Source: Perkinsus olseni (lineage: Eukaryota). From it: DNA of 47,538 bases. Shown here piece by piece: positions 5,158 through 36,800 of the stretch. Every line of letters begins with the position of its first letter. Position 1 is the stretch's first letter. The notes beneath the pieces are model-generated. The model worked only from the letters and a program-made list of their open reading frames with translations. It made no database searches and had not been told where the DNA came from. The translations under genes were made by a program, and so were the position numbers. The stretch covers positions 1 through 47,538 of the forward strand of contig JABANN010000247.1 in assembly GCA_013115125.1 (NCBI GenBank), in the 5' to 3' direction.

Positions 5158-7840
5158 TCAAATCTTCTCTGCCCGATAGGCGACGATCTTGGTGGAGAAA
5201 CGGCCAACGTTACGCACTGTGATGATCAGAGATCCAGGATGTTCGCACCTGACAGGAAAAAAGATGCCCGAGGCGACGCGATGCTCCGCAATTCCGATGA
5301 TTGTTATCACTTGTAAGTTCCCTCCACAACAGCCTTGTCGCCGGTCGGCTGGATCTCTTCATCCCCACTGTCGTACAGACTAACCTCTGAACTTCCATCA
5401 GATGGTCGAAAGGAAACCTGAGCAAACAAGCACGGGATGTACCGTTAGCCACAAGCTCAAAGATTGCTTCTCCGAAGTGGACACGATGGTTCACATCAAA
5501 CTCGCCTCCAACCGAATCTGTGACTGGAAACCCCAACAATTGCCGTGCTGCAATAGCATGCCCGCCGTAAACGTAGAAGTATCGCAATGGCATAAGTTCA
5601 TTACCCGGTTCATTCGGTATAATGATTACCGCGGTAGAGCTTTCAGTAGACAAGCAACTTCCAAGAGAAAAGCCAGCACCGGCGGCTTTGTGCTCCACCC
5701 AACCTCTCCCAGCAGTTCAAACTTACCGTAGCATATACAGCGCCATATGTGGCTCTAACTTGATACATAATTTCCCCCCCTGCTACGACACCTTTCAAGG
5801 CCGCTATCTCTGCAGTCTCTCTTGTTGCTAAACTCCGCGTGTGGCCCTCCGATTTCAACCCCTTACTCAATTCCGTACGCAAACCGCCGTACCTGCAAGA
5901 TGCGCTCAAACCATAGAGTCGCGCGCCACAAAATTAAGCCAATCCTCAGAACCCAGCTCACCGTGGATCGAGCACTCCTGGGTGAATGTACTGGGCCAGC
6001 TTGGACGGAGTCTCGCTGGCGTTGGCGAGTTGGAACTTTTTATAAGTTTTGGCCGGGATGAAGACGGACATCGCCTTGAATAGCAAAACGAAGGGAGTTG
6101 GGAAATTGGCGAATATAGTAACTCCTTTGAACTCGGGATAGCAATCTGCGAAGACCTGAAAAATCCCAAAAAATGACTTCATCTTACAGAGGGCACGCAG
6201 TTTTCTTCAGCTAAAAATCAAGCGCTCTTCAAATGAAAAAAATGCACTTTTTGAAGTCTGAAAGCGGAACGGTGATCGATTTATCGAGACGAGTGCGAAC
6301 TGTTATGCGCTTATGCGGAAATCCTTGCTTAATTTCTTCCACTGTACATTTTTCCCGGATGAACAGAGAGAACTAATATTCCGGGCAAATGATGACGCCT
6401 GCGCGAGGTCAGTAAGCTTCTGTTACAGGAAATACCGAGAGTATAAGCACCCGGGTTCAATTCCCGATCACTCCATATCTTTTCCCGTAATACATGTGTT
6501 GAAGCATTGACAGCCTTCTTGATACTGGACTCTTGAAAGACCATCGGCACTCCAGTGTAATCATGTATTTGCAGCAATGTCTCGGCATCACCACGACGGA
6601 AGGAAAGATGCGCTATGGCACGCTCAAACACCATTACACGGTACCTGGGGTACAATTCAACTACCCAATCTCGCGACGTACCTTCCAGGATTCCACTATG
6701 GCTCGATGAGGTTAGACACTGATGATATTTTTATGCATTAATTAACCTAGCCCACTACTGTACAGTAGAATCTTCTGTGTGCGTTACTCGTATCATTCCA
6801 TCGCATCACTCGCTCGTCATTGGATACTTAAAACCGTCGAAAGATACGCTCATCAATATGATACAAATCTATTCTGGACCCACCTCACAAAAGCATTGAT
6901 ATTTCCGAACACTTTGGCGGGGTCCATGCTACCGAAAGTGGTGAGAAGAATCGGCCTGCCCTCCTTATCCTTGTACTCAGGTGGAGAATCATGACCTCGA
7001 GCGCGGAAGATACAGAAAAGGTCAAGATAAAGATATATACCTTGAAACTCTGGAGGCAACTTCATATCGATGATGGACTGAATATCAGCTTCTCTGCGCC
7101 ACTTCAGGCAATTGACCAGCATCCTGCAAATGACCGCTGCGCCACGAAATGACTGATATTGTCACTCACGTTCGGGCCTTATCAACGTCAAATTCTCTCG
7201 CCCGAAGGAACTTCAAGAGAACTATATCCCGCGCATCTCTATGAAGCTGGTCTTCTGGACAAGGATGCAGAGCTTGACTGAAAGTAAAAGATGGAAAATG
7301 GCACAAAATATATCGATCAAAAATGTCACAATATAATCACATCATGATTTTATAATAAGATAATGAGGCGACCGTGAGATCCATATTGCAGCGGAAGATA
7401 CTGACTAGGTATCTTTGAATCAGAGCACGCTTATACTGTGAGTTCAGAGCTCTGAAAGGAAAGATACACCCGCGGAGGCGAAATCGATACAGATGGAGAT
7501 GAATACGAATGAAAATTGCCAGACAGGCGAGAAAAATTTGAGCTGGAAAAGGGAAAGCTTTCTTTTCACGAAGCGAGAATACCTCGTTTTTGCCAACTTC
7601 ACACTGATGATCGAACGAAATTATGCTAGCGACCAAGTGAGAGTCTATCTTATTATCCGTAGAGCACCAGGATGAAGCTAAGAAACGCCGATGTTATTAC
7701 TTCCATATAGTAACATTATCCCCTTCCTTATGACCGGCATCTAGTACCGCTTGAGGCACCTCCGATCGGAGACGCTCCAATGCCGCCTCCTCGGTGGTAG
7801 TGAGATTACCGAGATAACCAGTTTCGGTGGAGGTAGACAT
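5158..7840 (-). CDS. Patellin/SEC14-like phosphatidylinositol transfer protein (CRAL-TRIO-N + CRAL-TRIO + GOLD-like), multi-exon
   Basis: Spliced exons read MSTSTETGYLGNLTTTEEAALERLR...VTIW / DIVLLKFLRAREFDVDKART / MLVNCLKWRRE / DKEGRPILLTTFG / LLQIHDYTGVP / FADCYPEFKGVTIFANFP / YGGL / VSFRPSDG / CEHPGSLIITVRNVGRFSTKIVAYRAEKI*, with GT-AG boundaries. Confidence 0.9.
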
Positions 7841-33860: not shown

Positions 33861-36800
33861 ATGGCGGGCCCTCTAGACACTCGAGTAGGCCAGCCCTCCT
33901 CCTTGCTCGCCACTGGGGCCTCAGCTGGGAGTAGAGGTATCAGCTTTCTGAACGAGACTATCGACTGCAGTGAACTTGAGGGTTGGGATGCCATCGGAGG
34001 GGAGACAGTGCGGAGACACATACATCATGTTGTTGAATCGGTAGGATTCGAACCTTCCTTCATTGGAGTCGTGGTTGCTGTTGATGATAAGACGATTCCG
34101 TTGAGTCAACGCCAGGCATCGCCGTTGACCGGTGTTTGTCAAGAGAGCCACGAATGCGTCATGCATGGTTTAATTCCACTTGGACTCATCGCGTTACATC
34201 AGTGCTGAGAACAGCAATGTCCTTTATACGTGTTCCGATCTAACTCCTTTCATCTCCGATATGCTGTCCGATCTACCGCTTTCGATCCGAAAATGTAGCT
34301 GTGCTGTTAAAGAAGCAGAATCAGCCCCCCCCCCCGGGTTGTTGTCGTCGGTATGTGGTGAGGCAGGTGCTGCTACCGCTAGTGTACCCAGAGCTGTTCA
34401 AAGGCCTTGGAGTGTCGCCACCGCGAGGGCTACTCCTGCATGGCCCACCAGGCACTGGGAAGACGCTGTTGGCGCGGTAAGATAAGTGCGCTGATCGGGC
34501 TTGAGGATGACCACGCGTAGGTGCCTTGCCGGTAGCTGCTCTCGTCTTGGTGGCGGAGCGAAGGTCAGCTTCTTCATGAGAAAGGTGGGATCTGGCTGTG
34601 GCTGATTCTCGCCTAATTCTCGCACTATGGTCATGGTCAATCATACGCTCGACGGTCTCAGGGTGCAGATGTTCTGTCTAAGTGGGTCGGCGAGGGAGAG
34701 AGACTCCTTCGGGAGCTCTTCGACCAGGCCCGTAAAGCTCAACCTAGCATTATATTCTTCGACGAGATCGACGGCTTGGCACCTGTCCGCATCGGTAGGT
34801 CAACACTTTGGCCGTCCTTAGCTGAGGTTAATTGTTCCGGCTTCACACATTGTTCTCATTCTCAGGCTGCAGCGGGGCCAATTCGTCTGACCCTGTGGCC
34901 AGCGGAGGGTCGAGTCACAGCAGCTCTCTAGTGGCCACGCTGTTGGCCCTCATGGACGGCTTGGATGGCAGAGGTAAGGGGCAATCAGGTTCGACTCGGC
35001 AGTGAAAGTGCTATCGTTTGAGAGTTATTTGATCGCCATGGAAAATCTCTTCCAGGCGAACACGTGGTCGTTTTGGCTGCGACGAATCGTCCTGACGCCG
35101 TCGATCCGGCGCTTCGACGGCCCGGACGGTTTGATAAGGAGTTGCGCTTCTCTCCACCTAGAGGAGCTGCGGTAAGTCGCACAATCGTTTCTTATCTGGA
35201 TAGAGCCTGCCGGGTTTGATTCACCTGTCCTGCTTATTCAGTGATCGGAGGGGAGAGTAGGGTGTGCTCACGTCAATGCCTTGCGTGTGAAGAAACTACA
35301 TAGTAGTTCCGGTCTCCTTGGACCATTCTATAGCGAGCGTGTTCTATGTTCACTGAGGTTTGTTATTGTGGCGGTGCAATATCGTGGCACGTGAAATTCG
35401 GTGAAAAAATATCCGACAGTTCCATACACAAAAGTCCGCGCGTTCGGTAGTCATCACGGCGGCCACAGTAGGTTTCTGATAGTTTCCTCGATCGCGAAGG
35501 CTCACTTTTGTATTGCTGTCGATCCTCGTAGGACTACAGTGTGGTGGCTTATGCTGCTGTCAGGAACGTCGTGCAGTATTGGAGGTCCATACCCGAAAGT
35601 GGCGGTCTGACCAGATGCCACCGGGGACAGCAGCGTGGATATGTGATCCGTCGCGAACGGCAGGGTTCACAGGTAGAGGACGGAAGGCACATGAGTTGGA
35701 CCGCGTACCAAAAGTCAGAGGCATTGAGAAGACGATGTTAAAATGAACATGGAATCATTAGTTGCTAGCACGGCGGCAGCGAGTCTGATCAAGCCGACGG
35801 CGGCCTTGGACTTTGCACTCACATACGGACACATATCGAAAGAGTGTCTGTTGGGGAGATGACCAGCCTCGGTCGTCTCTTTAACTCAAGTCGCCATGGA
35901 GGCTAGGGCGCCCGAATACACGCTTGCTCTCCCTCGGAAGACTGTCGTGAAAGTCATAATTGGCGTTGTCCCAGGTGCGGATTTGAAAGCCCTAACCGAA
36001 GAAGCTGTGATGATGGCAGTGAGACGGACTTATCCTCAGATCTACGAGGAAGCTATACGGCAGACCTCCGGAGATCTCAATGGTGCCAAACGAAGTGAGG
36101 CTTCATTTGCTCGGCCAGCCCCCCGGCTGGACGTAATATCAGTCCGACAATGATTGCCGTGAAGTGCACAGCGAAGGTTCCCGGCTGTCCATGGGATTGT
36201 TAGAGATTTTTCTAAGGACCGCCCTCTCGGATATTCGAGCGGGACGGCATGGTCTTTCGGTCTTCGCTCATAGATGGCGGAGCCGATGTATCCAGCCCTG
36301 TTCGGGATAGGTCACGTAACTTTGGGTGTCCTCATTTCAGGGTCGACCCTTCGTCAGAAGTTCATGGTCTCTGCTTCAAACGTGGTCGTCACGCCACTTG
36401 ACTTCACCGCGGCTTTGAAGAAGATAGTTCCGAGCTCTAGGCGGAGATCTCAACACGCCACTGCTGCTGGGAATGGAAATAGTAGGCCACCTAGTACGCT
36501 ACGGCAGTTAGTTCTGTACTCGCCTGTTATGCGGTGCACGATTGTCGAGGTTCAGCGATATGATTCCTCTGAATCGGAAATTCTGATTGGCAATCCTATG
36601 AAACCTCGACCTTTGGATTGTGAATAACTCAAGTGGCACTTACCAAGTGTCGCTTCCTTGCTAAACTCTGCGACTGTAGATTCCACCTTTCCGTGATTGG
36701 GATTCACCTGCCCAGGACTCTCGCCTTTTGTGATTATTTCGTTATTGGTATCGTGACCAAACAATTAGCATTCGCGTTCAGACACCTCACTATTGCTTCG

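Follow-up and report, generated by a model that had tools for sequence, protein, structure and literature searches.

Ten short segments within introns of Perkinsus olseni, a parasite of clams, carry the 3' end of a transfer RNA (tRNA) gene without its 5' half, and three of them now provide the 5' splice site of the intron in which they lie. They were found in the contig JABANN010000247.1 (assembly GCA_013115125.1; 47,538 nt, analysed over its whole length and hereafter called the window). We are highly confident that the ten sites, hereafter called relics, are dead fragments derived from tRNA genes. The finding is real and statistically solid, apparently undescribed, and of a familiar kind, namely fragments of RNA polymerase III (Pol III) genes in introns. 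An earlier reading of the window from its letters only (the sequence-only reading) had listed seven T-arm-like segments, all of which are present; its list lacked three further relics, of which two have an exact B box (17902 (+) and 20733 (+)) and one is weaker (9578-9588 (-)).

The relics were searched for with the B-box word GGTTCRANYCC. Exact matches to this word numbered 8 in the whole window against a mean of 0.45 in dinucleotide shuffles, and 0 of 100 shuffles reached 8; when up to one mismatch was allowed, 28 matches were found against 10.6 (0/100 shuffles reached 28), and the 7-mer GGTTCGA was found 24 times against 6.25 (0/100 shuffles as high). An enrichment over dinucleotide-shuffled controls, on which the sequence-only reading had let its case for introns depend, was found for the window as a whole. 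It is specific to the word, since 1,000 letter-permuted GGTTCRANYCC patterns had on average 0.37, and at most 5, matches in the real window. A composite score made up of the B box, T-stem pairing, the word AGGTC and oligo-T was 5 or more at 11 sites, against 0.6 expected from 60 first-order Markov simulations, and these sites are exactly the ten relics and the one real tRNA gene of the window. The 8 exact matches consist of six relics (6454, 11294, 17902, 20733, 21261 and 34044), the intact tRNA-Ile(UAU) gene and a chance match in coding sequence at 31659; the other four relics (9086, 9578, 13889 and 14555) have one mismatch and a tRNA context. A profile search with the T arms of the ten sites (nhmmer) gave no extra copy in the window. 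Random recurrence of GTTCGA-type words in 47 kb would suit the match at 31659 and several GGTTCGA matches (e.g. 14002), which are coding and look random; as an account of the relics it was rejected by the shuffle, permuted-pattern and simulation controls and by the occurrence of AGGTC and TTTT in register, and we give it practically no credence. Note that the exact word at 31659..31669 (+) was not counted as a relic: it spans an acceptor site, encodes RFEPEP, which is kept in the P. chesapeaki orthologue, and has two of five T-stem pairs.

Around the B box, the relics have the anatomy of tRNA 3' ends (Table 1). AGGTC stands at tRNA positions 44-48, in register with the T loop, in 4 of the 10 copies (P = 1.3e-10), and at least four of the five T-stem pairs are kept in 6 of the 10. 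TTTT is the terminator of Pol III; of the 7 copies with an intronic 3' flank, 4 have it no more than 8 nt past position 73 (P = 6.4e-6), and a fifth has TTT. Over 34 nt that run from the anticodon loop into the T arm, the segment 9065-9098 has 79% identity with the tRNA-Ile gene of the window, and the copies at 14549-14577 and 21251-21283 are identical at 29/36. B box, in-register AGGTC, T-stem pairing and acceptor strand together bear out the earlier proposal that the segments derive from tRNA. The letters of the T stem and acceptor strand vary among the copies and therefore point to several parent tRNAs; that the segments come from more than one tRNA type, as had been suggested, is supported on the basis of these differing letters only.

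Table 1. Relics of tRNA-gene 3' ends in the window, with one further candidate
Feature	Position (strand)	tRNA-like parts	Host intron and orientation
3' relic	6446..6483 (+)	exact B box 6454-6464; 4/5 T-stem pairs; 7-nt acceptor-like strand; TTTT 4 nt past discriminator	antisense; SEC14-like intron 6156-6493 (gene on - strand); 3' end 18 nt from donor
3' relic	9065..9106 (+)	anticodon-loop-like CTCAT, then AGGTC, T arm and acceptor strand; one-mismatch B box	sense; Vps39-like intron 8842-9115; end 9 nt ahead of acceptor
weaker relic	9559..9596 (-)	one-mismatch B box; 3/5 T-stem pairs; TTTTT 3 nt past discriminator	antisense; middle of Vps39-like intron 9317-9778
relic	11279..11312 (-)	exact B box; 3/5 T-stem pairs; acceptor strand; discriminator G, then TTTT	antisense; Vps39-like intron 11139-11318; T arm 11 nt before acceptor
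relic	13881..13914 (+)	AGGTC; 5/5 T-stem pairs; one-mismatch B box; acceptor strand; discriminator G; TTTT	sense; Vps39-like intron 13861-13969
relic	14549..14577 (-)	AGGTC; T arm with one mismatch	antisense; 48-nt Vps39-like intron 14549-14596; 3' end is intron base 1
relic	17899..17923 (+)	exact B box; 4/5 T-stem pairs	sense; middle of intron 17755-18063, unnamed gene
relic	20730..20757 (+)	exact B box; 3/5 T-stem pairs; acceptor strand; discriminator G; TTT	sense; intron 20581-20795, unnamed gene
best relic	21251..21283 (-)	AGGTC; exact B box; 4/5 T-stem pairs; 7-nt acceptor strand	antisense; 66-nt intron 21251-21316
relic	34041..34062 (-)	exact B box; 4/5 T-stem pairs	antisense; ATAD2-like intron 34041-34366 (protein models only)
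possible eleventh relic	28638..28668 (+)	two-mismatch B box; 5/5 T-stem pairs; ACGTC for AGGTC; score class with 5 observed against 2.1 expected, not clearly above chance	sense; starts 2 nt into intron 28636-28726

The 5' part is absent from every copy. The apparent 5' limits lie at about tRNA positions 31, 40, 40, 43, and 49 or later, no copy has a D arm, and a tRNA 5' half would not fit into the introns of 48 and 66 nt. The A-box word (TRGCNNAGTGG-like, up to one mismatch) was not enriched in the window (25 matches against 17.4 expected; 6/100 shuffles reached 25), none occurred in the ~30-60 nt upstream of the relics, and the sole exact match belongs to the intact tRNA gene. Since fragments without an A box cannot be tRNA genes, and no complete cloverleaf was found at the relics, their reading as functional tRNA genes was rejected. 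ARAGORN at its default threshold, with introns allowed, called only 29661-29733 in the window; its 93 and 203 calls at lowered thresholds were discarded as noise, in which 3' ends at relics were joined to distant 5' parts. Partial tRNA matches were likewise absent from the Rfam results at E<=10, both for the whole window and for the sub-regions 20700-21330 and 9020-9120, the model being insensitive to fragments of 30-45 nt. Two 5'-like candidates were judged to be chance because A-box words are unenriched: intron 14705-14753 starts, in sense, like a tRNA 5' end (TAGCTTGTAGTGGTAGA), and 18622 has a class-II-like word. A metagenome scan for the parent tRNA type, with a 22-base stretch of the 21251-21283 relic, gave two loci, neither a tRNA by ARAGORN. 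At one of them (contig L001, 151-190) the same 22 bases are followed by an acceptor-like strand, and this site may be another orphan tRNA 3' end.

As for the source, CCA follows the discriminator in 0 of the 9 testable copies. The terminator is present and CCA is absent; therefore, the relics stem from a tRNA gene or from an unprocessed Pol III transcript, and retroposition of mature tRNA halves (the sequence-only reading had pointed out that tRNA halves can retropose) was rejected, as CCA is added post-transcriptionally and TTTT is present in 4 of 7. The flanks are not shared: among 55 pairwise local alignments of the 11 sites with +/-120 nt, the best 14 are confined to the tRNA part of ~45 nt, with one exception, a 13-nt match below the 95th percentile of shuffle scores. 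tRNA pseudogene fragments and tRNA-derived short interspersed elements (SINEs) are like the relics in that they derive from Pol III genes, have a B box, occur in both orientations in non-coding DNA and are mostly inert. However, SINEs of this kind begin at the 5' end with a tRNA head that carries both A and B boxes and continue in a shared body and a tail, whereas the relics have a tRNA 3' end followed by the terminator; a SINE reading was rejected on the lack of a common non-tRNA body in the best 14 of the 55 alignments and of an A box.

The host introns were delimited as follows. The open reading frame (ORF) 10678-11256 has one relative, the 900-aa hypothetical protein FOZ61_005755 (P. olseni, NCBI), whose exons are 98-100% identical to the window. 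Exact splice mapping placed 900/900 residues of FOZ61_005755 and 1303/1303 of FOZ61_005758 with GT..AG introns only, which marks the window as nuclear DNA of P. olseni or of a strain almost identical to it. The intron set (n = 69) is composed of 22 introns from the Vps39-like model, 36 from the FOZ61_005758 model and 11 from spliced RNA contigs; it covers 15,229 nt, i.e. 61% of the 24,895-nt gene span, with a median length of 166 nt. All ten relics are intronic, nine in listed introns of plus-strand genes and the tenth (6454) in the SEC14-like intron, which, on the evidence of spliced contigs or protein models, upholds the intronic location given earlier. Spliced RNA contigs (runs X7, X8 and mostly X16) confirm introns 14549-14596, 17755-18063, 20581-20795 and 21251-21316; the other host introns rest on the exact mapping of annotated P. 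olseni proteins. At 28-34 kb, RNA cover was too thin to confirm introns. Placement in introns throughout is unsurprising, because exons cannot hold relics and introns make up the bulk of the non-coding DNA here.

With Pfam, the hosts were assigned as a CRAL/TRIO (SEC14-like) gene on the minus strand, a Vps39-like gene from 8734 to ~17000 on the plus strand, and an AAA, ATAD2-like gene starting at ~31.4 kb on the plus strand; two further hosts are unnamed genes at ~17.1-20.2 kb and 20.4-22.3 kb, for which Pfam and PDB searches gave no match. The hosts are thus five, not four as had been counted, in addition to a PP2C-like model that holds the intact tRNA. As for orientation, six relics run against their host gene (antisense) and four run with it; the description as mostly antisense is right for the seven segments first listed (5/7) and does not extend to the ten, and a strand bias was not found.

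Three antisense relics adjoin the donor site exactly. In the 66-nt intron 21251-21316, tRNA position 72 is intron base 1 and the donor reads GTAGTT; in the 48-nt intron 14549-14596, the donor reads GTAGCA, whose GTAG complements the last bases of the acceptor strand; and intron 34041-34366 opens with the final base of the T stem, its donor reading GTAGGA (protein models). The donors at 14549 and 21251 were confirmed by spliced RNA contigs, the latter in contigs of three runs. The antisense end of the fragment reads G/GTAG, the commonest donor (GTAG, 22 of 69 introns), so that three fragments now provide the 5' splice site. With random placement in the 69 introns, at least 3 of 9 T arms within 7 nt of a donor are expected with P = 0.004 (a post hoc test). 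This link with donors is the part of the finding most worth following. The copies at 9578, 13889, 17902 and 20733 are internal and away from splice sites.

Such abutments raise the question whether the introns themselves were born from the fragments. tRNA-gene fragments inserted in exons, for example as filler in break repair, and kept where they could be spliced would account for introns 14549-14596, 21251-21316 and 34041-34366. The three antisense relics start at intron base 1, with the donor GT as the complement of the AC at the fragment end, and the low probability of their nearness to donors speaks for this origin; moreover, the relic fills half of each of the 48- and 66-nt introns, three runs have contigs in which both introns are spliced at the given boundaries, the two introns are 29/36 identical over their first 33 nt, and the possible sense copy at 28638..28668 begins 2 nt into its intron. 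However, the donor test was post hoc, and GTAG being the commonest donor makes a match of CTAC/C to a donor cheap; the two short introns differ from each other in their 3' parts, and hence are not copies of one intron; and five or six further relics have no splice site close by. In a divergent P. olseni-like DNA run (X9), 0 of 15 listed joints were intron-less, which gives no sign of recent gain, and alignments of P. chesapeaki proteins (SEC14-like and ATAD2-like genes) break at the same place and are uninformative on intron age. On balance, we consider this origin improbable. We grant the same low probability to its broader form, in which tRNA-gene 3' ends would be a recurrent raw material for new Perkinsus introns, with an antisense end G/GTAG spliceable at once, in an introner-like manner fed by Pol III debris and with no transposon family.

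The origin that we favour, although at no better than even chances, is that the relics are 5'-truncated copies of pre-tRNA or of its gene, neutral in introns. Here the copying mechanism and the neutrality are what we infer. Unprocessed Pol III pre-tRNA transcripts or tRNA genes of several types would be copied from the 3' end, with the 5' part lost at varying points; the copies would land in introns in either orientation, survive there where harmless and drift, most of them without a present role; and in the minority that adjoin a splice boundary, the complement of the fragment end would serve as donor. Truncated copying of this kind fits because the 5' half is always absent, the 5' limits vary short of the D arm, the flanks are unshared and two of the introns are too short for a whole tRNA. 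We also count in its favour the intact tRNA gene in an intron of the same window and the reported abundance of tRNA genes in P. marinus, where five types together exceed 500 copies (PMC3706591).

Several points weigh against this favoured origin. All relic counts come from a single 47.5-kb window of P. olseni. Target-site duplications (looked for by eye), poly-A and other marks of retroposition were not seen at the relics, so that an RNA route is likewise something we infer. A B-box-seeded search is blind to relics of the 5' half and to copies cut past the B box, and the restriction to 3' parts and the skew of truncation points are partly due to ascertainment for this reason. The three antisense copies adjoining donors exactly (P~0.004) are more than simple passengers should give. 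Finally, the B box is perfect in 6 of 10 copies and has one mismatch in the other 4, while 13 of 30 outer T-stem pairs are broken, which points to possible constraint on the B box or to truncation inside the stem.

If the B box was indeed constrained, the fragments could be kept as putative TFIIIC sites, similar to the extra TFIIIC (ETC) sites, in chromatin organisation or in Pol II control within genes. By a hand estimate, which assumes that the stems were initially intact, an equal decay rate makes so many perfect boxes next to so many broken stem pairs unlikely (~P = 0.01), and the density of 10 in ~15.6 kb of intron would suit such sites. However, the conservation is inflated, as the copies were detected by the B box; stems are broken equally by truncation within the stem; position and orientation relative to the genes are not fixed; and the terminator and acceptor parts are present though needless for TFIIIC binding. 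We thus hold a functional role of solo B boxes to be quite improbable, more so than an origin of introns from the fragments. What defines ETC sites is their occupancy by TFIIIC, and most of them lie between genes. The ETC sites of yeasts and other solo B boxes are similar to the relics in having the B-box consensus without an A box or a transcribed gene, whereas the relics are recognised from their letters, are intronic, and have extra tRNA parts (AGGTC, acceptor strand and oligo-T).

The window also contains a complete gene, tRNA-Ile(UAU) at 29661-29733 (-), called by ARAGORN and matched by Rfam RF00005 (67.6 bits), where the sequence-only reading had listed an intact intronic antisense tRNA. 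Its host is intron 29619-29851 of the PP2C-like gene model, in which it is antisense and 42 nt away from the donor, and TTTT was not found in the 42 nt downstream. In run X9, the summed contig depth was 472 over 29074-29740, the bin of this tRNA, against ~30 elsewhere, six contigs break at 29731, and the preceding bin (28407-29073) had a depth of 1.2; the depth and the breaks indicate that the tRNA-Ile gene is multi-copy.

An intact intronic tRNA gene is also what would be expected as a starting point if whole intronic tRNA genes were shortened in situ by deletions until 3' stumps were left. Under such decay, the presence of the terminator and the absence of CCA suit an origin at the DNA level, the short introns suggest deletion pressure, and the very many tRNA genes of P. 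marinus (available part of PMC3706591) would supply the genes. In addition, deletions must spare splice sites, so that antisense genes near a donor keep their 3' ends, which suits 6446-6483, 14549-14577 and 21251-21283. However, the 5' half is absent in 10 of 10 and no 5' relics were found, their detection being weak; the three exact abutments need a deletion, or a shift of the splice site, to that very base; and the relic 11279-11312 is near an acceptor, yet retains the half that points away from the splice site. We therefore regard decay in place as unlikely, although as the most probable of the alternatives to truncated copying.

Comparison with other known systems gave the following. The chimeric U6/L1 retrogenes and the tailless tRNA retropseudogenes of mammals are retrocopies of Pol III transcripts. 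They are alike in being copies of unprocessed or small Pol III RNAs without poly-A, of which truncated forms exist; however, the mammalian tailless tRNA copies are 3'-truncated, whereas the relics are 5'-truncated, with no partner of the long interspersed element type and no target duplication seen. Introners are known in Micromonas, Aureococcus, fungi, dinoflagellates and Amoebophrya (PMC7789003). In introners the ends of inserted DNA supply or adjoin splice sites, and here three introns begin with a fragment. However, introners form families whose many members are full-length and nearly identical, and terminal repeats and target duplications are often present; here the resemblance is confined to the tRNA-like 5' part of the introns (29/36; the introns at 14549 and 21251 share their first 33 nt only), there are two or three copies in one window, and the source is a tRNA gene. 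In P. marinus, Dada transposons split tRNA genes at TAGCTC (Kojima and Jurka 2013, PMC3706591, in its available part), and the likeness lies in the same genus, broken tRNA genes and a very high tRNA gene copy number. Dada leaves a long 3' piece beside an element of 5-11 kb (same part of the source), whereas the relics start at ~position 31 or later, lie in short introns and have no adjoining element. TAGCTC lies in the D arm of the window's tRNA-Ile. An origin of the relics as Dada leftovers was rejected, since the cut described in that part of the source is in the D arm and the 5' ends of the relics are past it. A literature search, outside which the repeat annotation of the P. olseni genome paper lay, gave no description of tRNA relics, introners or SINEs from Perkinsus.

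If the density in this window held genome-wide, P. olseni would have thousands of tRNA-gene stumps. These would then form an undescribed and readily scored class of insertions which could date intron sequence, could reveal the turnover of tRNA genes in a genome with huge tRNA gene numbers, and could mislead tRNA and B-box scans. The three donors taken from fragment ends are a concrete, testable case for the origin or shift of short introns, and, if bound by TFIIIC, the relics would provide the first example of intragenic ETC-like sites among alveolates.

Several observations were made on the host genes and their surroundings. The FOZ61_005758 model fuses the PP2C-like gene (27.5-31 kb) with the ATAD2-like gene, while the P. 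chesapeaki orthologue P0055 starts only in the ATAD2-like part. The same model omits 1.7 kb (31560-33285), inside which P0055 aligns to the open frame 31640-31744 (RFEPEPVYPRHMRK...); thus, FOZ61_005758 seems to be short of one exon here (see also 31657-31745). In the Vps39-like gene, an unspliced 1251-nt contig of run X7 (14809-16059) is reported as lying wholly within the 1335-nt intron 14838-16172, in which minus-strand ORFs of 110-115 aa occur; the contig may represent a nested gene or a retained intron. The 23-nt word GGGAATTTCGTGGCGCGCGGGAA occurs four times (17045-17067, 17155-17177, 17403-17425 and 18932-18954) in the unnamed gene at 17.1-20.2 kb, within its introns and 5' region, and, in part and inverted, at 7139-7150 in the SEC14-like gene; we take it to resemble the E2F-type TTTSGCGC site.

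Elsewhere in the window, two paralogous Thr/Ser-rich mucin-like ORFs (196-975 and 2515-3132) lie ~2.4 kb apart, with a 40-nt tandem array (3164-3470) and 15/30-nt periodic repeats (1533-1741 and 4651-4817). A local gene family has three 300-nt copies that are 83-86% identical (23171-23470, 23884-24183 and 25958-26257), and a 73-nt tandem duplicate is present at 24905-25050.

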